From: Polyangium sp. y55x31
GTDB taxonomy: Bacteria > Myxococcota_A > Polyangia > Polyangiales > Polyangiaceae
Length of the DNA stretch: 64,000 nucleotides
Direction: 5' to 3'
Assembly: GCF_029946505.1 (NCBI RefSeq)
Contig: NZ_JARZHG010000009.1
Span: forward strand, 234,927-298,926
The notes under the pieces were generated by a model, which worked only from the letters and a program-made list of their open reading frames with translations, did not search any database and was not told the DNA's origin. A program made the position numbers and the translations under genes. Each line of letters starts with the position of its first letter. Positions within the stretch are counted from its first letter, which is position 1. Of the stretch, positions 1 through 48,683 are shown piece after piece.

Positions 1-422
1 CGGCCGTGGAGGGAGCGGATGGCCTCGACGCGCTCTACCAGGAAGAGACCGCTGGCGAGAAGGATGCTATGGCCACCGTGTTGAAAGACTATACCTGGCC
101 TGATCCCGCTGACGAGGCTCGGTATGACGCGAGCTTCACCGGGGCAGACGTGACGATCGAGGACGCGCTGCGGTATCTGGCGATCGAGATCGCCCAGAAG
201 CACGCAGATGCGAACGTGAAGACCGCAGGGGTCATGCCGCTCGACAAGGTCTACGATAACGGCTTCGACCCGCTGACCGGCGGCTTCGAGGCCACGCCCA
301 CCACACCGTATCAGGTATTCGATCAATGGGTCGAGGTGCTGCCCACGGATCAGCTCGTGGCGGTGCAGGTCGAGTACGATCCGGTCACGGGGAGGCTGGT
401 CACGCCGCCCGCAGAGCCCTGA
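1..422 (+). CDS. hypothetical protein, 3' fragment (gene starts upstream of window)
   Basis: Open frame enters from the window edge (ORF 6..422). The translation is compositionally protein-like and diverse (…DYTWPDPADEARYD…). GC is lower than the window average. No recognisable domain. Confidence 0.5.
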   Translation, partial: AVEGADGLDALYQEETAGEKDAMATVLKDYTWPDPADEARYDASFTGADVTIEDALRYLAIEIAQKHADANVKTAGVMPLDKVYDNGFDPLTGGFEATPTTPYQVFDQWVEVLPTDQLVAVQVEYDPVTGRLVTPPAEP

Positions 423-505
423 CGGGCAGGCATGAGTGGGTGGCCCCGGCCGGCGTGGATATCTGCGCTGGCCGGGGTCGGCCGATGGCAGCCAGCGATC
501 CCAGA

Positions 506-2149
506 ATGTCCATAGGCAAAACCATGACTACTCAGCAGGTCAAGCTCAGCATCACGGTGTTCGATATCGACAATCAGCCCGTGGACCGGTTTACGGTCGC
601 GTGCAATTGGTGGTCTACAGGGGCCGGTAACAACTCGGAAGCGCAAATCAATAACAAGTTCGACTGTACGCTGGAGGCCGACGTACCGACGGGGAAGACC
701 AGCGATGTAAAAATCACCGTGAGCCACCCGGAATTTTTCAAGGAAGAGACGAGCATCGACACCTCCGGGAGTCATTGGACCAACCCTACGTGTGGGGTCA
801 CGCCGACCACGAATCCGGCGACGACCCCGCTTCAGGTCAAGTTCGTCCTGGGTCGGATGCAGAAGGCGCCGACAGTCGGGTTCCAGACCAAGGATCAGTT
901 GCGCGCGCTCATGGGTTCGCCGACTGGTGTCCTCCTCAACGAGACCCTCAGAAATCCTGGAGAGTTCGACTATCGAGCCTTGTTCAACCAGAAAAAGAAC
1001 CGATTCTTGGCGATTTCGCATCCAATCAGCAAGGACTCCAATGCGATACACCCGATCGTCAAAGACCCTCATGCAGACAACTGGGGGCGGGTACACCACG
1101 CGCATTTTACCGTGGACCCTTCGACGCAAGGACGCTTTCGATGGGTTGAATATGGCAAGGGAACCCAGCGCTTCGCAGTCGCAATCTGGATCCCCGAAGT
1201 CTATTTTGCGAACAACACCACAAGCAAATTAGACTTTATCGTATTTTACAGCCCAACCACGAACCTACCACAATATACACTGCCACGAGGACAACAGTAT
1301 CCTTATGGATTAAAAGGCACGGATCCGTGGCAGCCATACATCGCCGGGCTTGGACAGTCATACCTATTCAACGCACACTTCCTCAGCTATCAGCTATTGG
1401 CCGCCCAAAAGCGCGCCGTGTTGGTGATGCCGATAAACAACTTCGGTGAGTGGGGGCCATTCTCAGACCGGGCCGGCGTTCATCGGCTACTTGCGGAGGC
1501 CGCGCATTTCGTACACAAACAACGCCCCTGGAATATCGACGGCACATTCAAAGGACCGCTGCAAGACAAGCACGCACCAATCCCTGGGATCGGAAAGGTC
1601 GTAATCTCTGGATTCAGCAGTGGACACGTCCCAATCGACCGACTCATCTCACCAAGAAAGGAGGCGCGCGCGTTCAATCCCCTCTTCTACACCGCCGACG
1701 CAGCATCCTTCCCCAAGGTGTGGAAGGAGATTTGGGATTTGGACCTCGCACTCGGCTCTGCGACAGTCGATTGGGAGAAGAAGTTGATGAATTGGTTGGG
1801 AACGGATCCGACAAGGCGCTTTCGGATGTATCACTCCGAATACACAGCAGAACGCTGGCGACCGAGCGCCGGAAAAACACTGTCACCAAGGCAGACCATC
1901 AACAAGAAAGGGACAGCCGTGGGGGTAGAGGCCGAAGAGGTCTACGCGACAGATGGGCGCTGGTCGGCCGTGTACTTTTCGAACCTGTTCCTGCAGGGCT
2001 CCAAAGATGACAACAACGTCGACGGGCCCTGGTTACCGAAGTTCACGACGGACAAAAAAGGCCACCCGGAGAACATCGGCAAACATCACTTCATGATTGA
2101 CATCGTACTAGCGCACGCCGCGCTGACGAGCACACTCGATCCACTCTAG
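506..2149 (+). CDS. hypothetical protein (~550 aa) in low-GC island; contains G-F-S-S-G (GxSxG) motif
   Basis: Long ORF 326..2149; the start is chosen at the internal Met (MSIGKTMTTQQ) where GC drops to about 52-55%. The VVISGFSSGHVPID segment resembles a serine-hydrolase nucleophile elbow, but no family is assignable. Start could also be 485 or 521. Confidence 0.6.
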   Translation: MSIGKTMTTQQVKLSITVFDIDNQPVDRFTVACNWWSTGAGNNSEAQINNKFDCTLEADVPTGKTSDVKITVSHPEFFKEETSIDTSGSHWTNPTCGVTPTTNPATTPLQVKFVLGRMQKAPTVGFQTKDQLRALMGSPTGVLLNETLRNPGEFDYRALFNQKKNRFLAISHPISKDSNAIHPIVKDPHADNWGRVHHAHFTVDPSTQGRFRWVEYGKGTQRFAVAIWIPEVYFANNTTSKLDFIVFYSPTTNLPQYTLPRGQQYPYGLKGTDPWQPYIAGLGQSYLFNAHFLSYQLLAAQKRAVLVMPINNFGEWGPFSDRAGVHRLLAEAAHFVHKQRPWNIDGTFKGPLQDKHAPIPGIGKVVISGFSSGHVPIDRLISPRKEARAFNPLFYTADAASFPKVWKEIWDLDLALGSATVDWEKKLMNWLGTDPTRRFRMYHSEYTAERWRPSAGKTLSPRQTINKKGTAVGVEAEEVYATDGRWSAVYFSNLFLQGSKDDNNVDGPWLPKFTTDKKGHPENIGKHHFMIDIVLAHAALTSTLDPL

Positions 2150-4498: not shown

Positions 4499-4942
4499 AT
4501 GAAGCGCCGCATCGTCCCGCCGCTCTGCATCGCAATCGTCGCGAGCGTCATCGCGATCCAGACCGCGCGAACCCCTGGCCCCGCGCGCTCGCCGGGCGAA
4601 GGCGCCCGCCCCGCGAAGGCCACGTCCATCCCCTGCCCCGACGCGACGCGGGCGCTGCTCGACGGGCTCGACGTGGGCCAGGATCTCGGCGGCTACCGCG
4701 TCACGTACGTGCGTTGCACGAAGCCCGAGGTGATCGAGGTCGAGCTCGACAAGGGCGGGACGAGCCTCCTGCTCATCGTGGCCGAGCCAGGCGCCGTTCC
4801 GCACGCTTCGCCCAAGCAGACCGCGAAACACGCTCTCTTCTACAACCGCCGCGGCCCGCAGGACGGGCCTCCGACGGGTGGAGAGATCTTCGAGCTGCTC
4901 GGGCTGCTCGCGAAGCGCGTCGAGGCCGCAGAGCAGCGCTGA
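4499..4942 (+). CDS. secreted hypothetical protein (signal peptide)
   Basis: ATG at 4499 in the frame of ORF 4061..4942. The N-terminus MKRRIVPPLCIAIVASVIAIQTA looks like a typical signal peptide. The upstream part of the long ORF has junk composition. Confidence 0.6.
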   Translation: MKRRIVPPLCIAIVASVIAIQTARTPGPARSPGEGARPAKATSIPCPDATRALLDGLDVGQDLGGYRVTYVRCTKPEVIEVELDKGGTSLLLIVAEPGAVPHASPKQTAKHALFYNRRGPQDGPPTGGEIFELLGLLAKRVEAAEQR

Positions 4943-4970
4943 TCTCAGCCGGAGGACACGAGGACCTGAT

Positions 4971-5942
4971 TCAGTCCGCTCGAAAGCCCACGGGCGCGAT
5001 CCACGCGAGCACGATCATCACGCAGAGCAGGATCCATATCGCGTCGGGCATGGTGGGCTGCCCGAGCTCGGGCCTTCGCGCGAGCAGCGGATCCTCGATA
5101 CGCGGGCGGCGGAAGATGCGCGGCCACGGGACCGCGAAGAGGAGGAGCAGCGACATCGGCTCCAGATAAGGCATCTTGCAGAGCAGGAGGATGTGGAGGT
5201 GCAGCGCCCAGATCGCCGCCGTCCACGCGAGGCGCCATCGCGCGCCGAAGAGCAGGACGAACGAGCCGCCCTCGATCACGAGCGTCGCGAGCGCCGACAA
5301 GCGCGCGAGATCCGGGCTCTCGATCAGGGTGTTCCGATAGGCGAGCAGCCAGGGAAAGCTCGCGAGCGGCTCCTGCGAGAGGATGAGCCAGCGAATTTGA
5401 CTCGGGTTCACCCAGCCAAACCCCGACGCGAAGAGCTTGCTCAGCGCCGAGCCCACGTACCCGGCCGCGATGCAGGCCATCGCGCCCGCCTCGGCGAACG
5501 ATTCGCGCAGCGGGCGCCCCTCGGGCGAAAGCGCGTCGCGCCCGGCGACGACGCGGGCCCAGACGAGGCCGAGGACCCAGCCGAAGAGCATCGCCCCCGG
5601 GAAAAAGCAGTTGCGCGACGGCGTGCCGAAGAGCTCGGTTCGCCACTGGCTCAGCACCGCCATCCACCCGATCGCCCACGCCCCGGCGGCGATGACGAAG
5701 CGATCGAGCGCGAAAAAAAGGAGGCCGACCGCGACGAGCCCGAAGAGCACCCAGGCGAGGGCCGGCGTGTTCGGCAAGAAGCAGAGGAGCCCCGGCGCCC
5801 TGGGGACGAAATGGGGATCCTTCGCCATGCTCGCCACCTCGAATGCCGCGTCCAGGAAGACGATCCCCGCAATCACGGCGAGTCCCACGCGCAGCGCGGT
5901 CCGCGAATGGCCGTCGTACGGCGAGCGATACACGAGGCTCAC
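4971..5942 (-). CDS. polytopic membrane protein of unknown function
   Basis: Multiple hydrophobic helices (e.g. LAWVLFGLVAVGLLFFAL, IWILLCVMIVLAWIAPV). The GTG start at 5942 overlaps the TGA of the upstream gene (GTGA). An alternative ATG is at 5828. The N-terminal extension of ORF 4971..6464 beyond 5942 is Arg-rich junk. Confidence 0.6.
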   Translation of the reverse strand: MSLVYRSPYDGHSRTALRVGLAVIAGIVFLDAAFEVASMAKDPHFVPRAPGLLCFLPNTPALAWVLFGLVAVGLLFFALDRFVIAAGAWAIGWMAVLSQWRTELFGTPSRNCFFPGAMLFGWVLGLVWARVVAGRDALSPEGRPLRESFAEAGAMACIAAGYVGSALSKLFASGFGWVNPSQIRWLILSQEPLASFPWLLAYRNTLIESPDLARLSALATLVIEGGSFVLLFGARWRLAWTAAIWALHLHILLLCKMPYLEPMSLLLLFAVPWPRIFRRPRIEDPLLARRPELGQPTMPDAIWILLCVMIVLAWIAPVGFRAD

Positions 5943-26504: not shown

Positions 26505-26958
26505 CGCCCGCGCCGGAAGGGGATTCAGCAGGGTGCTGAGAAGCGCAGCGAGCGCCTCGGCTCCCCTGACCTTCGGCCAAGAGTCGACGGTCCGGTGATC
26601 ATTGAAAGAAGCGTGATGCTCCCGCGCGGGCAGGCGACCGGAAGGGGGGAGGCGGAGGCGAGAACGTCAAGGTGAGCCACCGCTGCCAGGGGGCGGATTC
26701 GGGTGATGGCGTGGCACTTGAGGGATGGAATCCCAGGCTACATTTAGGGGTATCAGTTTAGGGCAAGCATCGGGGGCACTTAGCCGATTCCGCCTCCGCT
26801 TTGCGCCTCCGCGTCGTCGGGGGAGTCGCTGCTATCCTAGTTGGACACGCGGCTGGCTTGCCGGATGCGGTTACTCCGGCAATGAGTGACGGTTCTTGCT
26901 TGACGTCATTGGCGTTCCCCTCTCTTTCGACACACGTCCGGGACTGCGAGGACCCGTC

Positions 26959-27150
26959 TCATGACTCATCCTTGAAGAACCTCAATAGCTCGAGAAGTCG
27001 TTCCCTTGGCATCCCGACGCGGAGCTCAAACTCCCAGTCTTCCAGAGCCTGATTGGTCTCCCGTAATGCCGATATGATGATGTCCAGATCGTCGGCGGAC
27101 ATCAGAACGCGAACCGAGCCAGAACCGAGTCGCTCGATTTTTCTATTCAT
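26959..27150 (-). CDS. putative cognate immunity protein of the RHS toxin (63 aa)
   Basis: ATG at 27150 overlaps the TGA of the RHS gene (ATGA). GC is about 52%, versus about 68% for the flanks. Sits immediately 3' of a polymorphic toxin C-terminal domain. No sequence family is recognised. Confidence 0.55.
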   Translation of the reverse strand: MNRKIERLGSGSVRVLMSADDLDIIISALRETNQALEDWEFELRVGMPRERLLELLRFFKDES

Positions 27151-30100
27151 AGCAGATCCTGAAAGTAACGAAGAGCATCCTTCGGGCGGAACATCGTCCC
27201 CTCGTGCCCAGCCTTGGTGATGACTATAGTGCCCGAAGGCTCGTGGAAGAAGGCGGTACGTCCACGTGCCAGATCGCGCACGAGAGTTTCCGACGATGTC
27301 ATCACGCGCTCGGCTCCCGCCGCGTATTCGGCCCGTGACGAGATCAATGCGAATTCTCCACGTGCGACGACATGTTTGTCAAACCCGTGACCACTTCCAA
27401 TGTTGGCAGCCAATGACCTGGCAGCACTTCGCTCCGCAGCAGTAACCGCACGAAACGCGCTGACGCCCGTCCCCGACGCTCCTACCCCCACTGTCGCGGC
27501 CGTCGTCACAGCCTCCAGCCCAAGCGGGATGAGCCGGTTGGCCAGCCTGGCGTAGCAGTCGGCCTTGTTCATCTGGCCACGCGACGTCGCGATGAGGGCG
27601 TTGTGCCGCGCCCGGACGCCGCCGGCGAATGCGCCGAAGCCTGTATAGAAGAGGAAGCCGTTGGTTGCCGAGTCCATCGCGGGGCCGTACGCCCGGCCGT
27701 CGAGGTCAATAAAATTCACCGGGTCATTGCCCGCATAGCCGTACAGGTTGAGTCCGCCATTGAAGCGGCTCGGGTCCTTCGTCGTCCAGCGCCCGAGGGT
27801 CGGGTCGTAGTCGCGGGCGCCGAAGCGGACGAGCCCGGTGTCCTGGTCGAGCAGACCTCCAGCGAAACCGAACGGGTGCGCGTCGTGCGTTCCCGGCGTC
27901 GACAGCGTATCCACAACGAACGTGGCGTTGCCGAACACGTCGAAGTCGATGCGCTGCACGATGTTGCCCGTGGCCAGATCGATGACGAGGCGCGGGCTGC
28001 CCAGGTGATCCTTGAAGACACGGTAGGCGACGTCCTGCTGCTGCGGCCCCGCGTTCGGCTTGACGATTATGTCCGGCGCGCCGCTCGTCGGGTGGACGAA
28101 GATCGAGACGATGTTGCCGCTGCTGTCGACCTCCGCCTCGGGGAGCAAGCCCGTGCCGTAGACCCAGCCGCGCACGAGCTGTCCGCTTCCGTCGAGGCGC
28201 GCGACGCGGCGGCCCTGCGGATCATTGAGGTAGTTGATCGTCTGTCCGCCCGGCAGGGTGACGCGGAGCAGGCCGCCCAGCGCGTCGTAGTTGTAGATGG
28301 TCTGCTGACCACCCACTGTCTTCGACATGAGCTGCCCGTCGTCGTTGTACGCGTACGTGGCCGTACCGTACGAGCCCATGCGGTCCTGCGCGTCGGGCAC
28401 CCCGGTGACCGTTGCGCCGCCCGCAGGGATGAAGCCGGTGCGGTTGCCTGCGGCGTCGTAATCGTAATGATCCGCGACCAGGCTACCATTCTTGAAGACG
28501 TCCTCGAGCTGGCCTCGCAGGTCGTACACGTACTCGTACGTGGTCGTCTGGCCATCGATGATTTCGGTCACTTTCTCGATGCGTCCCGCAGCGTCGTACC
28601 GGTCGTACGAGAAGTGCGCCTTCAGGGTGCCGTTGAAAAAGAGCTTTGACGATGTCAGGGCGCCGAAGTCGGTCTCGTAATCGAGGTCGGTCACCACCTT
28701 GTCCAAGGTCGTGGTGTCGAGCTTTCCGGATGCCGGATCGAGCGACAGCGAAAGCTCCCCAGCATCGGTCTTCACCTCGGTGAGCAGACCATCGTTGTCA
28801 TACTCGTAACCGATGGAGTGGCCGGCGATCGTCTCGGCCTGGATGAGCAGATCGTCGTAATGCGTCCAGCTCACGGTGAACGGGCCGAAGGGCGCGTCGG
28901 TGAGCATGATGCTCGTGGGTAGCGCGCCGTCATAGCCTATGACGAGCTGGGCCTTGTTCGTGCCGCAGGTGCGGGTCAAGGTATGCGGCAGGCCTTCCCC
29001 GTTGTACGTTTCCTCGTCGACGCAGGGCTGGTTCGGCAGCCCGGTGAAAAACGTCGACCGGACGCGGCCGAACGCGTCATATGAGAACTCCACGAAGTCC
29101 CCCGTCGGACGCTCGTAATAATCGAGCATCCCGTTGGGATGGTAGAAGTAGCGCGTCGGCTTGGGGATACTGTTGAGGACCGGAGGCGTGTAGATATCGA
29201 GCAGACCCACGTCGGTGAAGCTCTGCGTGTGAGTCTGCGTCGGCGTCGGCGATAGCGAGAGCAGCTGGCCCATCGCATTTGGGACGAAGGTCACGTTGCT
29301 CAGATCCGGGCGCGTCAGGCTCGTCTGGCGATTCGCGGCGTCGTAGCCGAACGTCGTCCAATGTGTCGTGTCATTGGGCTCCGACGCGGTCGAGAGGCGA
29401 CCCTTGGTGTCGTACGTGAACGAGATTTGCCGCGGCACGGACGCGCCCACGCCAGCGGTGATGGTGGCCGGCTGAGCGGGGTGAAGGTTCGGCAACGGAT
29501 CGTACGTCTGCTCGATGGGCTTACGACCCGGGCCCGCAGTGGAGACGGGGCGACCCCTGTCGTCGAGCTGCATCGTCGCCACGCGGTTCGCCGGCGACAT
29601 CATCGTGATGAGCTTCTTGTCGGACGCGCTCGGGTCGTTCTCGATCCTCCAGGTCGACGTCTTTGTCGAATTCGATGTGCTCCGGGTCGTGGTCTCCAGA
29701 TACGTCAGCGTCGTGAGGTCCCATGCACTGGCATAGCTCGCGCTGCGAGAGCGACTCGTGGTGAGCGTGTGCGAGCCTATCGTGATCGTCTCGTTCGCGA
29801 CGTAGGGCGCCAGCATGCCGAAGCGCGGATCTGGCAGCAACCTGGCCACGCGCGTGCTGAGCACCGTGCCGTTCGGGCCCCGCTCCTCCGTGGTTTGAAC
29901 CCCCTCGGGCGTGACGGTGATCGTGATGGTGGAGCCGTCCGCCGAGACATGCGTGCGCTCGACGGCGCCGCCGCCCTTGGGCTCCACGGTGTGAAGTTCC
30001 TGCTGCGACCTGGTAATGCCGAACGAATCCTCGAACGACGGCCCCGTCCAGGTTACTGTGGTGAGAAAGTCCTGCTTGTCACTGTCGAGCGTCTGTGCCG

Positions 30101-33100
30101 CGAGCAGCGCGTTCTCGTCCTTTTTCAGGCGACCCCAGCCATCGTACTCGAGTGTGGTCGTCTCGTTGAGGGGATTGGTGAACGTATGCAGCAAGCCCTC
30201 GGCGAAGCCACCGAGGTTTGCCCCGACCACGTTCATGGGCGGCGCCACGGCCGGCCAGTACGTCATCTCGAAGCTCTCGGACTTCGGGTTGGTGACCTTC
30301 TGCAGGTAGCCTTGTGCGTCGAGCTCGAAGTGCGTCACCTGGCCGTTGGGCGCGGTAATCGTGCCAGCGGTGTAATCGATCGACGTCACCTGGCCGAACC
30401 CGTCGATCACGTTCTCGAGCCTGTACGTACCAGGGTCGTAGTCGAAGGTATAGACGACGTGACCGGTCAGAGCGTTGTACGTTCGCTGGTGCCGGCCCGC
30501 GAAGTCGAACACGTACAGCTCCTCGCCGCCCTCCGAAGGAACGGTGATGTCGGTGGCAGAAAGGCCGGGCATGAAGGGGGAGATCCGCGCGAGTTGGTAA
30601 TCGCTGCGGCTGCCGACGAAGACATCGCCATTCGGAGCGAACGCAATACCCGTAGGAGTAGAGAAGTAGGCCGCGAGCGCCGCGCCGCCGTCGCCGCAGA
30701 GGGGGGAGCCGCCGAGGCAGGATGCCGGCTGGCTGTTCTCCCAGAACTTGCCTGCGAACGTGGCGATCACGCCATTGTCCTTGGCGATGTCGGCAGAGTT
30801 CGGATCGTTCGGATCGGCCTTCTCGTAGGCGGTGACGAGCGGGGGCTCGATGATGCGGACCACCTTGTTGGTAGAATCGCTGAACAGGAGGCTGCCATCG
30901 CGGGCGAGGGCCATGGCCAGCGGGTGAGCGAGCTTCGCCTGGTTTGCAGGACCGCCGTCCCCGGAGTAACCGGAAGTCGTCGACCCGGCGACCTCGCGCA
31001 GAATGCCATCCGTGCCCACGGCGCTGATGCGATGGTCGTGCGCGATGAACAGCGTCCCGTCCGGCCCCACGAGCAACGCCCTGACGGTTCCGAGCGCGGT
31101 CTGCACGGCCGGCTTGTTGGTGACGGTGCTCAGGCTGCCATTGAGGCCATTGCCGGCGACGGTCCAGATCCTCCCCGCAGGATCGATGTGGCGGATCACG
31201 TCTGCGCCCCCGCCTACGACGTTCGTGGTCGCGACATACACGCTGCCATCCGGGGCGACCGCGAGGGCCCTCGGCGACTCGAGGTGCACCGACGTCGCCG
31301 ACTGGCCTTCATTGGCCGGCAACCAGTTTCCACTGGGACCGCCACCCGCGATGACTTGATGCGTTTGATCGGGGTTGATACGCCACACGCGATCGTTGTT
31401 CAAATCGGCCCCGTACAACGCACCCCCGGGCCCCATCGCCACGTCCATCAGGCCAGTGACACCCGGTGCATACGTGCTGACGATCCCGGCCGGGTCGATG
31501 CGCCGGATCGAATCGGCGGCGCCGCCGCTGATGACGTACAGGGTTCCGTCCGGCGCGCTCGCCACGCGCTCGAAGTCAAGTGAAACCGACGCAGCAGGTT
31601 GGTTCTCGTAGCTCGGATGCCACGCCGCCGAGACGCCATTGCCGGCGTAGCTCTTGAGCTTCCAGAGCGTGCTGTCGGCCTTGCGCCGATCGCCGTTGCC
31701 CAGGTAGAGCGTCTGGCCCTGCACATCGTAGGCGTGGTGCACGTCCAGGCTCCAGCCGCCGATGCGATCGAGCCGGCTGTTCCAGTGGCCGATCTGGGTC
31801 GCGTAGGACCGCCAAAGGATGACAGGTGGCGGCGGGGAGCCCACCACTATACTGCAGGGTCCGCCGCCGCAGGTCTGGCTCGTGTCGCTGCCGCCAAAAT
31901 AGGGCGGCGCGCCCCAAATGCCGGGGTACATGTAGCCGACATTCACCCGGGCATGCTGGGCCCCCTGCAGCAGGCGCCCCATGGAATCATGCCCCGACCA
32001 CGCCACGTCGAAGTTTCCTTCGAAATTGACGCCCAGGTACCAACGCTCGTACAACCCCGCGACGAGGAGTTCCACCACCGTGGCCATCGCCTTCGGGTGT
32101 AGGTTCCTCTTGATCGGGATCCGTAGCGCTGGCAGCCGCCCTGGCACGTTCCCCGAGGAGTATGCGAGCGAGAACGGCGTCCCTACTACGGGGATCTGCT
32201 CACGCACGACCTGATTTTCGCATTCGATGATCGAGCCAAGCTTCTTGCAGGGATCATCGAGGTCGGTCGGCTTGATGTCCTCCGGCCCCGGCGGTTGGGC
32301 GCCCTCCGGCGGGCCGACATTCACGTTCTTGTCGAGGGGTGTGAAGTGCTCCATCCGGGTGCGCCACAGGAACTTGCCAATCGTGTACTGCTTGGCGAGC
32401 TCCCGGAGCTCATAGTCGGCCTCCGGGGCGTTCGGATTCGCCAGCCCAGCAATCGCGATCGGCGAACCGTTCTGGGCCATGCCCGCGGAGAGCACGGCCT
32501 TGCCGTTCACGATGTCCACGATCTGCACCACCTGGGCATTGCTCACCTCGGTGCGATTCGTGTCGGGGTTATAGGCCTCATTGGGCACCCATGTCCCCCG
32601 CTTCTCGTCGTAGTAGCCCACTGGCACCGACATGGGCAGCCCGAAGTCCAGGAAGTTGTCGAGGTAGATGGTGACGGGTTTGCTGAAGACCACCCGCTCG
32701 GCCCCCTGTGCCTCGTCGATCTCGTAGGACGCGCAATATGTATACGCCACGTTCGCCGCGAGGCTGGCAGGCATCGCGGACAGCCTGTTTGCGCCGTCCG
32801 TGTATTCGGTCACCCGCAGGTGAGCATTGCCCTGGATCAGCACCTGCGTGCCGCCGGGCATGTAGGCAACGGCGCTGGTTGCCGGCTGGAAAATCACCAC
32901 CGGCTGCCGCATCCCTCGCTCGTCGACGATCACCTCCCCCTTCGCCGTACTGCCATTCAGCAGATCCACCGGCGCCGATACCTCGCTGCGGGGGAGCATC
33001 TCCACGACGTCCGCGGTGGCGTACTCGTTCCACGCCGTCTTCACCCAGCGCTGCGACGGCAGGTAGCCCGGCATCTCATACGCCAGCGTCAGTTGCTCGC

Positions 33101-34136
33101 CGCCCTCGACCACCAGATCGAATACGCCGTTGCTACGCGTGAGCGTGTAGCCGAACTCCGGGTGCTCGAGGATGGAGACACGGACGTTGGCCAGCGAAGT
33201 CCAGTCATTCTTCACCACCCTGCCGTGCACGATGGCCACGTGCAGGGCATCGAACGAGAGCGCGGGCTGCCCATCGAAAGGCTGCTGCAGTGCGGGGACG
33301 CCCGGAAGCGCCGGCTGATACAGGCACTTGGCCGCCTCGGCGACGGTGGTCGTCTTGCTGAGATCGTCGAGGTCGCAAACCGAGGCGTGCAACGTTCCAG
33401 TGTTCGGATCGCAGGCCTCGAGCGGGACATTGAGGCCCCCCAGAGGCTGCCCCGGCTCGCACCTGCCCTGGCCGTTGCAGGTTTCCTGTCCATTGCAAGC
33501 ATTACCGTCGCTGCAGGACTGCCCTTGCGGCGCCCAGGTGGTCCCCGAGCACTGGCCGACGCTGTTGCACTGGCTCGCGGTCGTACAACCATTGTCGTCG
33601 TCGCAGACGGCTCCCTGGTGGATGGTCGTCGTGCACGCCCCGAGGCCGTCGCACTCTGCCGTCACGCAAGGGGGCATGTCGCCCGCGCACTTCGTCCCCG
33701 CGGCCGCGGGGCTCTGCGCGGGGCTGCAATTCCCCATACCGTCGCAGGCATCCATGCCATTGCATGCCTGGCCATCATCGCACGACGTCCCCGCCGGCGC
33801 GGTGCCAGACAGGACGCATCGCCCAGTCAAATCGCAGGTCCCGAAGCCCGTGCAAACGTTACTATCGTCGTCGCACGGCGCGCCGGGTATGGGGAAATGA
33901 TAACATGGCCAGTTGGGATCGAGGCCTACGGGTGAGTCCCACGTGCACGGGTTATGGTCATTGCAGGTCCCCAACGCCTGCACGGCGGTACCGAGCTCCG
34001 CCTCCTCCGCGCTTCCAAGCGCGTTTGAATCACCCTGGCAGCCCCCGGCAAAGCCGAACGCGCCGAGCAACGTCGCGAAGAGTGTCCACTTGAAGAAAAA
34101 TGCAGTCCGAGCCGAAGGTCCAATATGCCGACCCAT
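27147..34136 (-). CDS. teneurin-like NHL/YD-repeat RHS polymorphic toxin (2329 aa) with variable C-terminal toxin domain
   Basis: Signal/lipobox N-terminus, Cys-rich modules (CxDxxxC repeats), NHL-type beta-propeller repeats, and many YD repeats (YxYDxxGR…). RHS core terminus [36 protein letters not shown], followed by a roughly 190-aa C-terminal domain of lower GC. Confidence 0.9.
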   Translation of the reverse strand: [2329 protein letters not shown]

Positions 34137-41969: not shown

Positions 41970-44900
41970 TCAAGTGCCACGGAATCGGCTCGGCGGTCCG
42001 TTCTTGTTCCCTTCGGTGGACGGCGCCGCGCGGAAGCGGGCCTCGGCATACTCGCTACGCGTGGCGAGTCGAACGAGATCGGCGAGGGCCGGATGCGCCG
42101 CGCAAGCCCGCGCGAGGCCGCCCTCGGCCGTGAGGGGCATGTCGAGATCGAGCTTGAGCTCGGCGACGACCTGGCGAAGGGCCGTGGGGAGGTCGCCGCT
42201 CGCAAAGAGGCCGGCGCGGCGAGCGGCGCGGCGAGCACTCTCGATGGCGGACTCGTAGGTGATGCCGTCGGGCTGGGCGAAGATCTCGCGGAGGCGACGG
42301 TCGCCACGAGGCGGGACGATTTGCCAGAGGTCCTGGCCGAGGCGCGCGACGCCGGGGTCGGTGCCGCCGGTGGGTCCAACGGGGCCGAAGGCGGCGCGGA
42401 GGGCCTCGATGAGGGTGCGCAGGTGCTCCTCGGGGAGGCGGACGAGGACGTGCTCGGGCATGGCGCCGGCGATGGAAGCGCCGAGGAGGTAACGAAGCTC
42501 GGGGGTCTCCTCGCGGATCTCGCCCGTGAGGACGACGGCCGGCGGCGCGAGGAGCGCGACCTGGACGTTGAGGGCAGCCTGGTTCGGGGCGCCGGCGGGG
42601 ACGCGGCGGTGGAAGAGCGGGGTGCGCGCGGCGCCGAAGACACGCGTGACCGAGCCCCAGACGTCGCCGAGGACGGTGGGGGCGCCGGGCTGGACGCGGA
42701 GGGCGCCGGTGAGGCCGTAGTGGCTCGGCTCGCGGCGATAACGGCCGGTCTCCCAGGTGATGGCGAGGGCCTCGTTGATGGGGCTCTCGACGTTGCGGAA
42801 GAGGAGCGCGAGGACGAGCTCGGGGGCCGAGGCGAGCGCGGAGAGCGGCGGCGGCGCGACGGCGCGGCCGGCCGGATCGAAGCCGGCGAGGACGTGCTCG
42901 ACGGCGCGGGCATAGGCGCCGTTGCGGTCGAGCTGGGCGGCCTCGTGGAGCTTCTGGAGCGTCACGCGATCGCCGGGGCGCAAGGAGGCCTGGTGCTTGC
43001 GGACGACGAGGAGGTCACGCGAGCGCGCTTCGGCGTTGCCGCCGTAGACCTCGACGAGGCGCTCGCCCGCGTCGTACGAGCCGGCCATGAGCTGCTCGAA
43101 GAGCGCGGTCTCGCGCGCAGGTCCGCCGCCCGGCGCGGGGGTGGGAGGCGCGGTGCGGGCGCGCGGCTGCGCAGGCGGCGCGGGCTCCTCGGCGAGCGGC
43201 GCGGGAGGTGGCATTTCGGCGGGCGGCGGCGGCGGACGGAGGCCCGTCGGCATGGAGCGGATGGCGCTCGCCGCGAGGGGGATCGGGATGTCGTCGTCGT
43301 CGTCCGCGCCGTCGTCGAAGGCGTTCTCGAACGCCTCTTCGAGGTCGAGCATGAGGCCCTGGCCATCGTCGGTGAGCGGCGCGGGGGCCGGCGGCGGAGG
43401 CGGCGGAGGCGGCGGCTCGGAGGGCTCGACGATGAGGCGGGGCCTGCGCGCATGCGCGAGCTCCTCGGCGATCTGCGCGGCGAGGTTGCGGTCGGAGGCC
43501 GCGAGGGGGAAGGCGTCGGCGTAGAGGCGGATGGCCTCGTCGGGGTCGGTGGCGACGACGAGGCGGCCGAGCTGGTAGAGGAAGCGGGCGCGATCGAGGC
43601 CGGCGCTCTGGCGGATGAGGTCGAAGAGGGCGGAGCGCGCAGCCTCGGGCTCGCCATATCCCGCGACGAACTCGAGCTTCTTGCGCATCGCGATCGGGCG
43701 GGTGTCTGGCTCGACGGCAGCCGTGTCGAGCAGGCGCGAAGCGGTCTCGAGCTGGGCCGCGGCGAGGGCGGCGTCGGCGGCGGCGAGGGCGACACGGCCG
43801 CGGCTGCGGAGGCCGCGGAGGTCGCCGCTCAAGGCGCGCTCGAAGAGGGGCAAGGCCGCGTCGAAGTTCTTGTTGCGCACGAGGCGCTCGGCCATGCCGA
43901 GGGCGATGAGCGGAGCCGGGCCGAACGCGGCGTGCCGGCGCGAGAGCTCGCGCATGCCGGCGCCGCCGCCCTGGATGACGTCGAGCTCCTCGGCGAGCAG
44001 GAACGCTTGGAGCTCCATCTGCTCGGGCGTGAGGTGCTCGCCGATGCGCATGAGCTCGTCGATGGCGTGTTGCGCTTCGCGAGGCGTGCCGCCGCCGCGC
44101 GCGCGGTACTCGAGGCGGCGCGCTTCGAGGACGGCGTCGGCGGAGTGCGGAGCGAGGCGGACGGCGCGGCGGACGCGGTCGAGGGCCGTCGCCTCGTCGC
44201 CGGTCGAGGAGGAGGCGCGGGCCGCCTCGACGAGGTAACTCGCGCGTTTGTCCGCGGGCTCGCGGGAAGCGGTGGCGAGCTGATCGAGGGCCTCGGAGAG
44301 GGTGCGGGCGTCGCCCTGATGGCGAGCGATCGCGACGCGCAGCTCGATGACGGCGTCGCGCGCGGCGATGGGCGCGATGCTCTCCAGGATGTTGCGCGCG
44401 GCCTGGGCGTTGCCTCCGGCGAGCCAGTCGTTCGCGGCGCGGATGCCGTACTCGGCGCGCTCGTCGGTCTTCGCGGAGAGCTCGCCGAGGCGCTGCCAGA
44501 GGGGCGCGGCCCGGAGCGGCGATCCGAGTCGCTCGCGGATGTCGGCGAGGAAGCGGAGCGCGCTCGGATCGTCGGGCGTCTCCGCGAGGAGGGCGTCGAG
44601 CTCGGCGCAAGCGTCCTCCAGGCGGCCGAGGCGCTGCTCGAGGACGGCGGCGCGGCGGAGGCGCAGGGTGCGGCGCAGATCGGGCGCCTGTGCGGCGGCG
44701 ATGCGCTTGCCGAGGATCTCGGCGACGGCGGCGTGATCGCCCTGCGAGGCCGCGTGCGCTTCGAGGCCTTCGAGGGCCTCCTCGTTGTCGGGCGCGAGCT
44801 CGCTCGCGGCCTTGAGGTGCGCGACGCCGGCCTTGTGATCCCCGAGCGCTTCGAGGAGCGCCGCGAGCTCACGCAGGATGGAGGCGCGCGTGACCGCGTC

Positions 44901-47900
44901 CTCGGTGCGCTGGAGCTGGAGGTTCAGGAGCGCGACCTGCGCGGGGCGATCGCCGGTGCGGCGCGCGAGGCGCAGCGTGGTCGCGAGCAGCTCGTCGGTC
45001 GGCTCGCTGTCCTGGAGGATGCGCTTCAGGACGTCGAGCGCGGCCGCGTCCTCGCCGCGTCCCGCGAGCATGGTCGAGAGGTCGACCGCGATGCGCACGC
45101 GGGACATGGGCCCGAGGTCCTGCCGCGCGAGCTCGGAGGCGAGAACGGCCTCGGCCTCGCTCGCGCGCTCGGACAGGACGAAGAGCCGGCGCATGCTGGA
45201 GAGCGCGGCCTCGCGTTGCTCGGGCGTGATGCTCGGCGAGCGCAGGGCACGCTCGAGCGTCTCGATCGACTCGGCGAAGTTGCCCTCGCGCTCCCTGCGC
45301 TCGGCGACGTGCAAGAGGGCCGCGAGGCGAACATCCGGCGCGACGGCAGCGTCGAGGTCCCGCGCGAGCGCCGCGTCGCCCGAGGCGAACACGGCCGCGT
45401 CGGCGTCGCTCACGAGCAGCTCGTCCTCCGGGGCGCGGCGCGCCGCCTGCACGAGGAGCGTGCCCGTGACGAGCGGATCGCCGAGCGCCTGCGCGAGCTT
45501 TCCGCCGAGGCGGAGGAGCGCGACGCCCACGCTCGCGTAGGGCTTGGCGACGGCTTGCAGCAGCGCTTCGAGGAAGGCGCGTGTCGCCGCGGCGTCGCCG
45601 GCCGCAACCACGGGCGCGAGCTCGACGAGCGTGTCGTATTCGTCGATGTCGCCGTCCGCGGCCACGGCACGCTCGACGAGCGAGAGCCCGAGCGCGTGCG
45701 CGCCGAGCGCGCCGAACGCGACCTTGGCGAGGGCCACGGCCACGCGCGCGCCGTCGGGCCCGTCGGTGCGTTTCAACGCGGCGAGGGCCGTGCTTTCGAA
45801 GCGGGCGACGAGCGGCCCGACGTGGCTCACGGATGCGACGAGCTTGCGCAGCGCCTCGCCGATCTCCTCGACGGTCCCGAGGTCCGGCCGCGCCGAGAGG
45901 GCGCGCAGGAGCAGGTCGAAGCGCATGCGGCTGCCCTCGCCCGCGGACTTCGCGAGCGAGGCGGCGCGCTTGAGCCACGCGGCCCGCACGCCTCCTTCGG
46001 CCGCCTCGGCGACGCGCTCGATCGCGCGGATCGCCTCGGTCGGGTTGCCGCCGCGCTCCGCGAGGCGCGCCATCAAGACGTACGACGTGCCCTCGGAGGG
46101 GACGGCCTCGTAGCACGCGACCGCGTGGCGCAACGCCGCGTCGATCGCGCCTCGTCGTTCGAGCTGACGTGCGCCGCGGTAGTGCGCCGCGCGCCGCCCG
46201 TAACAACCGAGCGCGGCTGCGGCGAGCACGTCGTACGTGCGATCGAGGACGTCGATGCCGCCTTCCACGGCGGACGATCGCTCGACGATCGCCACGGCCT
46301 CGGCGCGTGACGGATCGATCTGGATCGCGCTCGCGCCGATCTCGAGGGCGCGCTTCGGCAGCCCGTTCGCGACGGCCAGGTTCGCCGCTTCGATGAGCAG
46401 GCTCGCGCGCCTGCGCGGCTCGTTCGTGAGCGTCTCCGCGCGCCGCACGATCGCGTCGAGCGCGGCCGCAGGCCCCGCGAACGTCACGAGGTCGCGCGCG
46501 TACCGCTCCATCCCGCCGCGCGGCGCGGCCACGGCGGCGCGCCAGAACGCGTCCTCCGCGCCTACCGGATCTTGCGCGAGATCCCAGCGCACGGCCCCGA
46601 GATCCCGGAGCCCGCTCGACAGGTTCTCCAGGGCCGACTGCTCCGGCCCGTCGACGAGATCCCCGAGCGCGCGCACCCTCGCCTCGACGAACGAGACGAG
46701 CCCGTCCGATCCGAGCGACGCGCCGCTCTGCTGCATCTTGTCGTCGAGCGCGTCGAGGTGCTCGTGCAGGTGCCGCGACTCCGCGCCCTTCTCCGCGGCG
46801 CGCGCGAGCTCCGCCGCCGCCCCGTCCCAGTCCTCCGCCGCCGCGCGCCGCTGCGCCAGATCGAAGAGCCGCTCGATCGTGCGCTCGTTCTTCGTGTCGG
46901 CCGACACGAGCCGTTCGAGCAGCACCACGCCGAGCGCCACGTCCCCCGCGCGATCACTCATCGCGAGCAGCCGACCGCGGAGCCCCGGCACGCGCGGCCC
47001 GTACATGTCGAGCGCGCGCCTCCCGACGTCGATCGCGCGCGGCGCGTCGAGCTCGAAGAGCAGCGAGAGCGCGTCGCCGAAGAGGCTCGACATGTCGTCG
47101 AGGGGCCGCGGCTGCGCGAGCACCCACCCGAGCGCGTCCTCCAGCCGGTCCGGATCGTACGCCTGCGAAGCAAGCCGTACGAGTTCACGCATCGCGTCGG
47201 GGCACCCCGGGCGGAGCGCGAGCCAGCGCTGCGTCCACGTCACGGCGAGCGCCATCTCCCCGACCGTCTCGAACGACTTCGCGAGACCCTCGCAGAGCGA
47301 CGAGCGGATCAGCATCGTCGACGCGCCGCCCTCGACCGCCATCGCCGCGTCGAGATCCGGCATCGCGATCGTCGCCTTCGCCAGCGCCGACAGGGCCCGC
47401 GCCGACGCGGGATCCGCGAGGCACGCGTCCTCGGCCGTCCTCCGCGCGAGCGACGCGAGCCCGAGCCCGAGGTAACCCTCCGCGGCCACCGCGAGCAGGC
47501 TCGCGCTGATCTCTCCATTCGTCTCGGCTGCGATCTGCACGAGCGCGTCGGCGCGCTCGCGCTCCTTCGACGCGCCGAGCGTCGCCTGGAGCAGCGCCGC
47601 CGCCGCGACCTCCGAGCCCTTCGCGCGCGCGGCGATCGACGCGATGCTCCCGCCCTTCTGCCGGAGCTCGCGCCGCACCGAGGCGATCCCGTCGAGCGAC
47701 GCGAGCGCGACGGCGCGATCCGCGAGCAGCCCGAGATCACTCTCGACCTCGGCCACGATCCCCGCGTCGAGCACGGCTGCGATCGCGCGCGCCGCGCTCC
47801 CCTCGTCGAGCGCCCGCGACACGCGGCGCAGGTGCACCTGCCGCGCGCGGTACCGGTTCGTCTGGAAGGCGGCGAGCGCGTGATCACGCAACGCCTCGTC

Positions 47901-48683
47901 GGCCGCTCCCGCCGCTCCACGCGCGGCGAGCGCGTCGACCATCGTGTTCGCGGCCATCTCGTCTTCGGGCGAGATCTCGAACGCGCGCAGCCGATCCTCG
48001 AGCGCGCTGTCCGCGTCCTCGAGCGCCTCGTGCCGCGCCGCCGCCGTCAAATATCCCGCCGCCGCGTCCGCCTTGGGAATCGCCTCCTCTGCCCAGGCCG
48101 CGATCGTTCCGACGAGCTCGAGCGGCATGGGCTGGCTCGAATCGAGCGCCGCCGCCTCCTTCAGCGCCGCGGCCGCGCCCTTCGGATCGGCGCCTCGCGC
48201 GAGCAGCACGGCGATCTTCAGCAGCGTCTGCGCCGACGAAGCGGGCCGCGCCGGATCCACCGATGCGCGCAGCACCTCTGCGGCCGCGACCGGCTCGCCG
48301 AGCCCCGCGAGCCACTCGGCGAGCTCCGAACGCAGCGCCTCGTCCTCGCCGAGCGCGAGCGCGCGCCGCGCCATGTTCACGGCCGTATCGAGCTCCGTCT
48401 CGCGTGACGCGAGCAGCCGCCCGAGCGCGTTCGCGGCTTCGCGCTCGCCTGCTGCGTCGCCGGCGTCTCGACACCGCGCGACCACGCCGCGCAGAAAGGC
48501 GATCTCCGCGCGCGGCCCGTGATGCCGCACGATCGGCTCTTCCGTGCGGTTCGCCTCCAGCACGAGCGAACCTGCCGAGGTGGGCGCTGGCCGGTCGGCG
48601 AGCTCGGGCGGCGGCATGGTGCCGCGCCGCGCGACCGGCGCGGCGTCTTCATCCGTCGCGGAGAAATGGGCCGAAGAGCTCAT
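41970..48683 (-). CDS. giant Ala/Leu-rich TPR-like repeat protein (2237 aa) with Pro-rich/acidic linker and C-terminal globular region
   Basis: Long helical repeat composition, PPPPPPPPPAPAPLTDD…DDDDD linker, C-terminal non-repetitive 500 aa. Co-directional with the lipoprotein genes downstream and the sppA/Zn-ribbon-TPR genes upstream. Confidence 0.75.
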   Translation of the reverse strand: MSSSAHFSATDEDAAPVARRGTMPPPELADRPAPTSAGSLVLEANRTEEPIVRHHGPRAEIAFLRGVVARCRDAGDAAGEREAANALGRLLASRETELDTAVNMARRALALGEDEALRSELAEWLAGLGEPVAAAEVLRASVDPARPASSAQTLLKIAVLLARGADPKGAAAALKEAAALDSSQPMPLELVGTIAAWAEEAIPKADAAAGYLTAAARHEALEDADSALEDRLRAFEISPEDEMAANTMVDALAARGAAGAADEALRDHALAAFQTNRYRARQVHLRRVSRALDEGSAARAIAAVLDAGIVAEVESDLGLLADRAVALASLDGIASVRRELRQKGGSIASIAARAKGSEVAAAALLQATLGASKERERADALVQIAAETNGEISASLLAVAAEGYLGLGLASLARRTAEDACLADPASARALSALAKATIAMPDLDAAMAVEGGASTMLIRSSLCEGLAKSFETVGEMALAVTWTQRWLALRPGCPDAMRELVRLASQAYDPDRLEDALGWVLAQPRPLDDMSSLFGDALSLLFELDAPRAIDVGRRALDMYGPRVPGLRGRLLAMSDRAGDVALGVVLLERLVSADTKNERTIERLFDLAQRRAAAEDWDGAAAELARAAEKGAESRHLHEHLDALDDKMQQSGASLGSDGLVSFVEARVRALGDLVDGPEQSALENLSSGLRDLGAVRWDLAQDPVGAEDAFWRAAVAAPRGGMERYARDLVTFAGPAAALDAIVRRAETLTNEPRRRASLLIEAANLAVANGLPKRALEIGASAIQIDPSRAEAVAIVERSSAVEGGIDVLDRTYDVLAAAALGCYGRRAAHYRGARQLERRGAIDAALRHAVACYEAVPSEGTSYVLMARLAERGGNPTEAIRAIERVAEAAEGGVRAAWLKRAASLAKSAGEGSRMRFDLLLRALSARPDLGTVEEIGEALRKLVASVSHVGPLVARFESTALAALKRTDGPDGARVAVALAKVAFGALGAHALGLSLVERAVAADGDIDEYDTLVELAPVVAAGDAAATRAFLEALLQAVAKPYASVGVALLRLGGKLAQALGDPLVTGTLLVQAARRAPEDELLVSDADAAVFASGDAALARDLDAAVAPDVRLAALLHVAERREREGNFAESIETLERALRSPSITPEQREAALSSMRRLFVLSERASEAEAVLASELARQDLGPMSRVRIAVDLSTMLAGRGEDAAALDVLKRILQDSEPTDELLATTLRLARRTGDRPAQVALLNLQLQRTEDAVTRASILRELAALLEALGDHKAGVAHLKAASELAPDNEEALEGLEAHAASQGDHAAVAEILGKRIAAAQAPDLRRTLRLRRAAVLEQRLGRLEDACAELDALLAETPDDPSALRFLADIRERLGSPLRAAPLWQRLGELSAKTDERAEYGIRAANDWLAGGNAQAARNILESIAPIAARDAVIELRVAIARHQGDARTLSEALDQLATASREPADKRASYLVEAARASSSTGDEATALDRVRRAVRLAPHSADAVLEARRLEYRARGGGTPREAQHAIDELMRIGEHLTPEQMELQAFLLAEELDVIQGGGAGMRELSRRHAAFGPAPLIALGMAERLVRNKNFDAALPLFERALSGDLRGLRSRGRVALAAADAALAAAQLETASRLLDTAAVEPDTRPIAMRKKLEFVAGYGEPEAARSALFDLIRQSAGLDRARFLYQLGRLVVATDPDEAIRLYADAFPLAASDRNLAAQIAEELAHARRPRLIVEPSEPPPPPPPPPAPAPLTDDGQGLMLDLEEAFENAFDDGADDDDDIPIPLAASAIRSMPTGLRPPPPPAEMPPPAPLAEEPAPPAQPRARTAPPTPAPGGGPARETALFEQLMAGSYDAGERLVEVYGGNAEARSRDLLVVRKHQASLRPGDRVTLQKLHEAAQLDRNGAYARAVEHVLAGFDPAGRAVAPPPLSALASAPELVLALLFRNVESPINEALAITWETGRYRREPSHYGLTGALRVQPGAPTVLGDVWGSVTRVFGAARTPLFHRRVPAGAPNQAALNVQVALLAPPAVVLTGEIREETPELRYLLGASIAGAMPEHVLVRLPEEHLRTLIEALRAAFGPVGPTGGTDPGVARLGQDLWQIVPPRGDRRLREIFAQPDGITYESAIESARRAARRAGLFASGDLPTALRQVVAELKLDLDMPLTAEGGLARACAAHPALADLVRLATRSEYAEARFRAAPSTEGNKNGPPSRFRGT

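Follow-up and report, generated by a model that had tools for sequence, protein, structure and literature searches.

RNases of the BECR fold are common to toxin-antitoxin (TA) and polymorphic toxin systems (PMC3482391), and for the toxins of the ColD type two immunity families have been listed, Imm22 and Imm64 (Zhang et al., 2012, PMC3482391). Two solved structures serve here as points of comparison: colicin D with its inhibitor ImmD (PDB 1V74) and the contact-dependent inhibition (CDI) toxin-immunity complex of E. coli O32:H37 (PDB 8EY4). The text of a BECR classification preprint of 2026 contains neither 8EY4 nor ImmD nor myxobacteria (bioRxiv 10.64898/2026.08.28.747851), and the literature library searched yielded nothing relevant on 8EY4 or on the EDWEF motif described below. 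The present analysis concerns an open reading frame (ORF) of 63 codons in a stretch of 64,000 nucleotides from Polyangium sp. y55x31 (contig NZ_JARZHG010000009.1, positions 234,927 to 298,926), referred to as the window, where it directly follows the gene of a large RHS protein. Very probably it is the cognate immunity gene of a colicin-D-like toxin that forms the C-terminus of the RHS protein.

The locus resembles the colicin D/ImmD system: a small acidic protein, the presumed inhibitor, is encoded directly downstream of the toxin, and the model of the toxin domain adopts the fold of the colicin D tRNase (probability 1.0 in Foldseek). Its N-terminal helix bears a Lys-His pair and its last strand a conserved Thr, residues that may correspond to the BECR active site as described (PMC3482391; bioRxiv 10.64898/2026.08.28.747851). 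The differences are also clear. At E<=1, Pfam Colicin_D is not matched by any of seven toxin domains and Colicin_immun (PF09204) is matched neither by the ORF, which has no Pfam match at that threshold, nor by 32 members of its family; the model of the small protein does not match the ImmD fold; and the carrier is an RHS lipoprotein, not a colicin, in a myxobacterium-like, high-GC host. Among solved toxins the closest by sequence is that of 8EY4, since a profile of the toxin family matches a single chain of the PDB, 8ey4_A (E 0.0025 across 77 columns; 87% probability in hhalign; template modelling score, TM, of 0.57/0.69 in Foldseek). The two have in common the motifs KH..EF, G.T.Y and T.F.P..G..Y, whereas their identity is only about 21% and delivery depends on CdiA (PT-VENN) in one case and on RHS in the other. 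The family of the 63-residue protein is like Imm22 and Imm64 in its proposed role and in gene position, and these two families also occur as orphans and in polyimmunity arrangements. No sequence match connects them with it, and the conserved pattern is E..ALEDWEF.TR.G here, as opposed to "W, Y, acidic" in Imm22 and "DxEA, R" in Imm64 (PMC3482391).

The ORF lies at 26959..27150 on the minus strand, stop codon included. The original prediction, which was made from the sequence alone and left the strand unstated, had the coordinates and the 63 residues right, and what it said about the junction and the composition is also borne out. The ATG (27150..27148) overlaps the TGA of the RHS gene (27149..27147), so that the junction reads ...CTGCTATGAATAG..., and the 192 bp of the ORF have a GC content of 52.1% compared with 68.5% for the window, that is, the drop of about 16 points that had been claimed. 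A GC content this low is reached in only 0.44% of windows of 192 bp. The decrease reaches into the RHS gene, whose last 104 codons have 58.3% GC and, at third codon positions, 57.7% compared with 83.8% in the RHS core. Because the dip covers both the ORF and the toxin domain, the two form one low-GC module, rather than the ORF alone being deviant.

Evidence for a cognate pair comes from other loci. Hidden Markov models (HMMs) of both families were built and used to scan six-frame translations of all fetched loci (designated by L and a number). Seventeen pairs of toxin and small gene were found in several phyla, always on the same strand and with a distance of -4 to +20 nucleotides from the toxin stop to the immunity start. 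It had been proposed to look for homologues that follow C-terminal toxin domains of one type, and the small genes of all 17 pairs do so; together, the position and the pairing with one toxin family across carriers support the cognate-immunity interpretation. The ATGA junction recurs in L003, L005, L006 and L031; in L026, L028 and L036 the two genes meet at TGATG. In the metagenomic contig L003, a toxin 57% identical to that of the window overlaps, again by ATGA, an ORF of 65 residues (57% identical), which is followed by an RHS-repeat fragment. That fragment, at 659..1132, is a new ORF with RHS/YD-like repeats directly after the pair, which points to rhs genes in tandem or to an orphan arrangement.

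The association holds when it is approached from either side. In a sample of 21 loci of species-representative genomes that hold the small gene, an intact toxin domain lies directly upstream on the same strand in seven (L006, L007, L009, L014, L018, L022 and L024), a frameshifted one in two (L005 and L008) and only the 3' third of the toxin in another two (L013 and L017), while L016 has a weak remnant recognised by eye. The 12 distinct metagenome loci comprise three with a full toxin domain, three with a remnant, four with none and two cut by the contig end. Starting from the toxin, the four distinct loci (L003, L025-L027, L028 and L029) all have a member of the small family directly downstream, the copy in L027, a variant of the L025-L027 locus, being truncated. 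Nowhere else in the fetched loci was the toxin domain found than directly upstream of the small gene. Over 15 pairs the distances among toxins correlate with those among immunity proteins (Mantel r 0.71, p 1e-4).

The carriers to which the toxin is attached are varied: RHS in the window and in L024, RHS with PT-HINT in Streptosporangium (L007) and PT-HINT in L008 and L018, whereas toxins of about 148 residues that have no carrier occur in actinobacterial contigs, L026 and L028 included. Whatever the N-terminal carrier, it is one toxin family that the small gene tracks. Several of the carrier-free loci have a TA-like appearance, with a toxin of 148-170 residues and a partner of 67-70 residues in actinobacterial genomes and metagenome-assembled genomes (L025-L028, 4001..4662; L029, 4001..4727); in L029, from Lacisediminihabitans, a further ORF of 72 residues, to which no family could be assigned, follows the immunity gene (4746..4964).

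The toxin domain itself can be assigned with the help of its AlphaFold2 (AF2) model, which has a predicted local distance difference test (pLDDT) score of 92.6 and consists of helices H12-27, H30-37 and H47-59 and four strands, that is, the pre-alpha helix and four-stranded sheet of the BECR fold, closest to colicin D. When the model was compared with the PDB by Foldseek, the six best matches were to the colicin D tRNase (1v74_A, 1tfk_A, 1tfo_A, 5znm) and 8ey4_A, all with a probability of at least 0.99, and nothing else came near; for 1v74_A, 1tfk_A, 8ey4_A and 5znm the probability was 1.0 and E about 2e-3. Since the best fold matches are all colicin D or 8ey4_A, the domain is taken as a putative colicin-D-like BECR-fold RNase, and by analogy with members that have been characterised it probably cleaves tRNA (bioRxiv 10.64898/2026.08.28.747851; PMC3482391). 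It is basic (isoelectric point, pI, 9.8) and contains the motifs GHGFDKHVxxxGEF, GRTAFF and GTMFRP, which correspond in the family to GH[AG]FxKHVxxxGEF, GRxA[FY]W and GT.F.P..G..YF. Residues K33, H34, R72 and T93 are invariant in an alignment of 40 toxin sequences and are candidate counterparts of K608/H611/S677 of colicin D. None of the 222 homologues of the domain has a Pfam domain on record.

The family of the small protein came into view only with an exhaustive search. A word-indexed protein search with the ORF returned a single relative, a hypothetical protein of 63 residues from Polyangium jinanense (86% identical), whereas HMMER, run exhaustively against 1.84 billion cluster representatives, recovered 42 of them at E<=1e-3. 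Most have 62-86 residues; another nine, of 120-267 residues, contain the domain in two tandem copies or are longer fusions (P0003, P0006, P0008, P0021, P0025, P0026, P0028, P0036 and P0039). The family consensus is ALRETxEALEDWEFETRxG, which reads ETxQALEDWEFELRVG in the window protein (residues 31-46), and E31, W39, E40 and G46 are invariant in the alignment. The proteins are uniformly acidic (pI 4.1-5.0; 4.7 in the window). The AF2 model of the 63-residue protein (pLDDT 93) has a beta-hairpin at 4-16 followed by helices at 19-35, 38-45 and 49-62.

The original prediction recognised no family in this protein, a judgement that still holds after searches of Pfam, NCBIfam and the PDB. Neither the ORF nor 31-32 members of its family match any Pfam or NCBIfam model, and none of Imm1-Imm74 in Pfam, Imm22 and Imm64 included, is among the matches of the ORF or of the family members. 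The family profile has no match among PDB sequences and does not recover the ImmD chains at E<=10. In the comparison of the 63-residue model with the PDB by Foldseek nothing was better than E 0.7, and in neither of two fold searches was ImmD (1V74 chain B) matched; the immunity chain of 8EY4 was recovered neither by these fold searches nor by the family profile. Every source name in the family is "hypothetical protein". By these sequence and profile comparisons the family is new and previously unnamed, and the toxin family paired with it has no Pfam or NCBIfam model.

The protein that carries the toxin was correctly named as RHS in the original prediction, as seen from its Pfam matches: RHS_repeat (1.1e-31, in seven stretches), TEN_YD-shell (1.2e-23), TEN_NHL and TTR_TEN1-4. 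It begins with a signal peptide whose lipobox reads ...FAGGC, its further parts are Cys-rich repeats, a TTR domain, an NHL propeller and a YD shell, and by its sequence it is classed as a bacterial teneurin-like lipoprotein toxin. Behind the lipoprotein signal peptide, the layout of a teneurin ectodomain is almost complete. The order of elements is that of RHS proteins in general, with RHS repeats and a YD shell, then NDPVNFIDLDGR, then a variable C-terminus. We take NDPVNFIDLDGR to be a variant of the PxxxxDPxGL boundary motif that precedes the variable C-terminus of Rhs proteins. The 181 residues past the end of the RHS core have no match in Pfam or NCBIfam. They begin with a Gly/Ala-rich linker, for which these two databases likewise give no family match and which may be an entry, translocation or membrane-entry segment. 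Comparable Gly/Ala-rich stretches precede the toxin domain in two Sorangium loci (L005 and L006) and in L024.

Another group of observations concerns the copies of the small gene that stand alone. Roughly half of the copies outside the toxin-bearing pairs are orphans. Orphans were found in L004, L010-L012, L015, L019-L021 and L023, and a 3' remnant of the toxin lies upstream of the orphans L013, L017, L030, L032 and L043. Homologues in non-toxin contexts had been named in advance as evidence against an immunity function, and formally the orphans are of this kind; the pattern is, in turn, the one expected for immunity genes, and several orphans keep the toxin 3' remnant. Such remnants are what the recombinational displacement of toxin tips would leave. 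The family thus shows further hallmarks of immunity genes: orphan copies, copies after toxin fragments, and tandem or fused repeats. No obvious polyimmunity island was recognised in the orphan neighbourhoods, which were listed without annotation. In the Spirillospora locus L023, two similar Cys-rich ORFs of 87 residues (M..EEPTEE.CRVCG…) lie just upstream of the orphan, at 4501..4764 on the minus strand and 5226..5489 on the plus strand.

The orphan of P. jinanense (L001/L002/L004; around 10001..10192 in L001) was aligned with the window at the DNA level. Near-identity starts at the ATG and ends about 44 nucleotides past the stop, with unrelated DNA on either side. No toxin precedes the P. jinanense copy, which is located among several Phage_integrase genes. 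With respect to the orphan modules of Rhs and CDI loci, the limits of this identity and the toxin 3' ends kept by other orphans are points of likeness, whereas the location of the P. jinanense copy in an integrase-rich island, and not downstream of an rhs gene, is a difference.

How far these data can be explained otherwise has to be considered. Short ORFs abound in the window, and 82 ORFs of at least 40 residues overlap the surrounding 12 kb; in DNA of 68% GC a frame of 63 codons is therefore not unusual by size, and an exact look-up of the protein in the gene-call collection gave no record. That the frame arose by chance in GC-rich DNA, or has decayed and lost its function in this genome, is nevertheless hardly credible. 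The RHS protein likewise has no record in that collection, which means that the genome is simply absent from it, and homology effectively rules out an origin by chance. The full-length frame is intact and the start, MNRK/MTRK, is conserved among relatives; comparison with the P. jinanense copy (Nei-Gojobori) gives dN 0.081 and dS 0.20, a ratio of about 0.4 that indicates purifying selection; and the residues invariant across the family, the confident fold and the intact toxin partner upstream point in the same direction. The ORF is a real, conserved gene, on account of its homology (dN/dS and the 42 representatives) and its confident fold, not of its length. It is also quite improbable that this gene encodes a small regulator, or a chaperone for the secretion or stabilisation of the RHS toxin, instead of an inhibitor. 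Small helical proteins are hard to classify and the 63-residue model has weak Foldseek matches to winged-helix or HTH-like proteins (probability <=0.25), but the fold searches give this role no significant support.

The alternative with the most in its favour, unlikely as it is, holds that the pair is primarily a type II TA module, for addiction or abortive infection, in which the small protein would act as an antitoxin inside the cell, and that its place at the tip of an RHS protein is a secondary capture. A length of only about 148 residues is frequent among the 222 toxin homologues, and in the actinobacterial contigs L025-L028 free-standing modules, made of a toxin of 148 residues and a partner of 70 with a 1-nucleotide overlap, have housekeeping neighbours and no secretion-associated domain, L029 being similar. 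Several facts weigh against a cognate RHS immunity protein acting on a colicin-D-like RNase. Pairs that stand free among housekeeping genes might just as well be TA modules; nine of the 21 genome loci, and four of the 10 distinct metagenome loci that can be assessed, have no detectable toxin beside the small gene, from which it follows that the small-protein family can persist without the toxin; a number of the partner toxins have a pI of 5.3-7 and so are not basic, an argument against a purely electrostatic model of binding; and the toxin resembles colicin D only modestly (E of about 2e-3 and TM of 0.5-0.7 in Foldseek) and scores nil with Pfam Colicin_D, so that the RNA target rests on analogy only. 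On the other side, the toxin of the window forms the very C-terminus of an RHS lipoprotein of 2329 residues that is secreted, a fusion that a TA module does not fit, and relatives too are fused to RHS or PT-HINT carriers. A two-gene operon with a toxin free of any carrier is not what the window contains and is seen only in some relatives (L025-L029). No DNA-binding domain of the antitoxin type was detected in the family and fold searches, and the low-complexity N-terminus of about 60 residues in the 148-residue proteins could be a secretion signal. Even as a TA module, the biochemical role, a toxin neutralised by binding, would be unchanged.

For a cognate immunity protein the following mechanism can be proposed, in which we infer physical binding, its interface, the RNA target and protection. 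The toxin would be a colicin-D-like, metal-independent RNase of the BECR fold, most likely a tRNase by analogy, carried by the teneurin-like RHS lipoprotein and presumably aimed at neighbouring bacteria. Translational coupling of the immunity gene to the toxin through ATGA implies that each producer cell makes both, so that the small acidic protein would be present wherever the toxin is synthesised. Most likely the 63-residue protein would form a tight 1:1 complex with the basic toxin domain and keep RNA from reaching it, perhaps with the helix that bears the invariant acidic and aromatic residues E-D-W-E-F as the contact. Toxin domain and immunity gene would travel together as one low-GC cassette.

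The coordinates of these features are collected in Table 1.

Table 1. Features of the toxin-immunity locus, in positions of the window, with the basis of each assignment
Feature	Position	Strand	Basis or remark
Teneurin-like RHS/YD lipoprotein, 2329 residues, carries the putative toxin	27147..34136	-	Pfam and translation
End of the RHS core, NDPVNFIDLDGR	27693..27728	-	Translations; precedes the variable C-terminus
Gly/Ala-rich hydrophobic linker, 73 residues, from RHS core to toxin domain	27474..27692	-	Translation
Predicted C-terminal toxin domain, last 108 residues of the RHS protein	27150..27473	-	AF2 model, Foldseek, profile search
AGGA, Shine-Dalgarno-like tetramer (putative function)	27157..27160	-	6 nucleotides upstream of the ATG, within the toxin coding sequence
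ATGA overlap of toxin stop codon and immunity start codon	27147..27150	-	Read from the sequence; translational coupling
Candidate immunity gene	26959..27150	-	Translation, family of 42 representatives, model with pLDDT 93, family-HMM match 1.6e-23
3' edge of the shared immunity cassette, about 44 nucleotides past the stop	26915..26958	-	DNA alignment with the P. jinanense orphan

An RNA element was considered and rejected: around the ORF, no Rfam match rose above noise, and the conserved 3' flank showed no significant RNA structure (z-score 0.84). No convincing promoter or terminator was found in the region. Elsewhere in the window, a second giant ORF (41970..48683, minus strand, 2237 residues), at first taken as RHS, was rejected after Pfam identified only TPR repeats in it, and a second low-GC stretch (326..2149, plus strand), with many 192-bp windows of 56% GC or less, corresponds to an ORF of 607 residues that has no Pfam match.

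A broader proposal is possible but should be considered doubtful. According to it, the 63-residue protein founds a new immunity fold, made of a beta-hairpin and three helices with the EDWEF helix and lacking any solved relative, and together with an RNase that no family model describes it constitutes a compact mobile cassette of two genes, which moves between secreted carriers (RHS, PT-HINT and FHA-like) of Gram-negative and Gram-positive bacteria and TA-like modules of Actinomycetota. If this exchange of cassettes is true, it would be a concrete example of the traffic between interbacterial weapons and intracellular TA systems.

Conceptually, the finding is one more immunity family within a very large and well-understood class. 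Its practical consequence is that a pair whose two members have so far been annotated only as "hypothetical", a colicin-D-like RNase domain and an acidic partner of 60-70 residues present in at least six phyla, is now named and delimited, and annotation of RHS, PT-HINT and CDI-like loci could include such pairs. A putative inhibitor of only 63 residues with a confidently predicted fold would be useful to structural studies of the inhibition of BECR RNases. For the ecology of myxobacteria, two things are of interest: the teneurin-like RHS lipoprotein of the window and, in P. jinanense, a near-identical immunity gene that is an orphan and whose product, 86% identical, may confer cross-protection against the toxin of the organism studied here.
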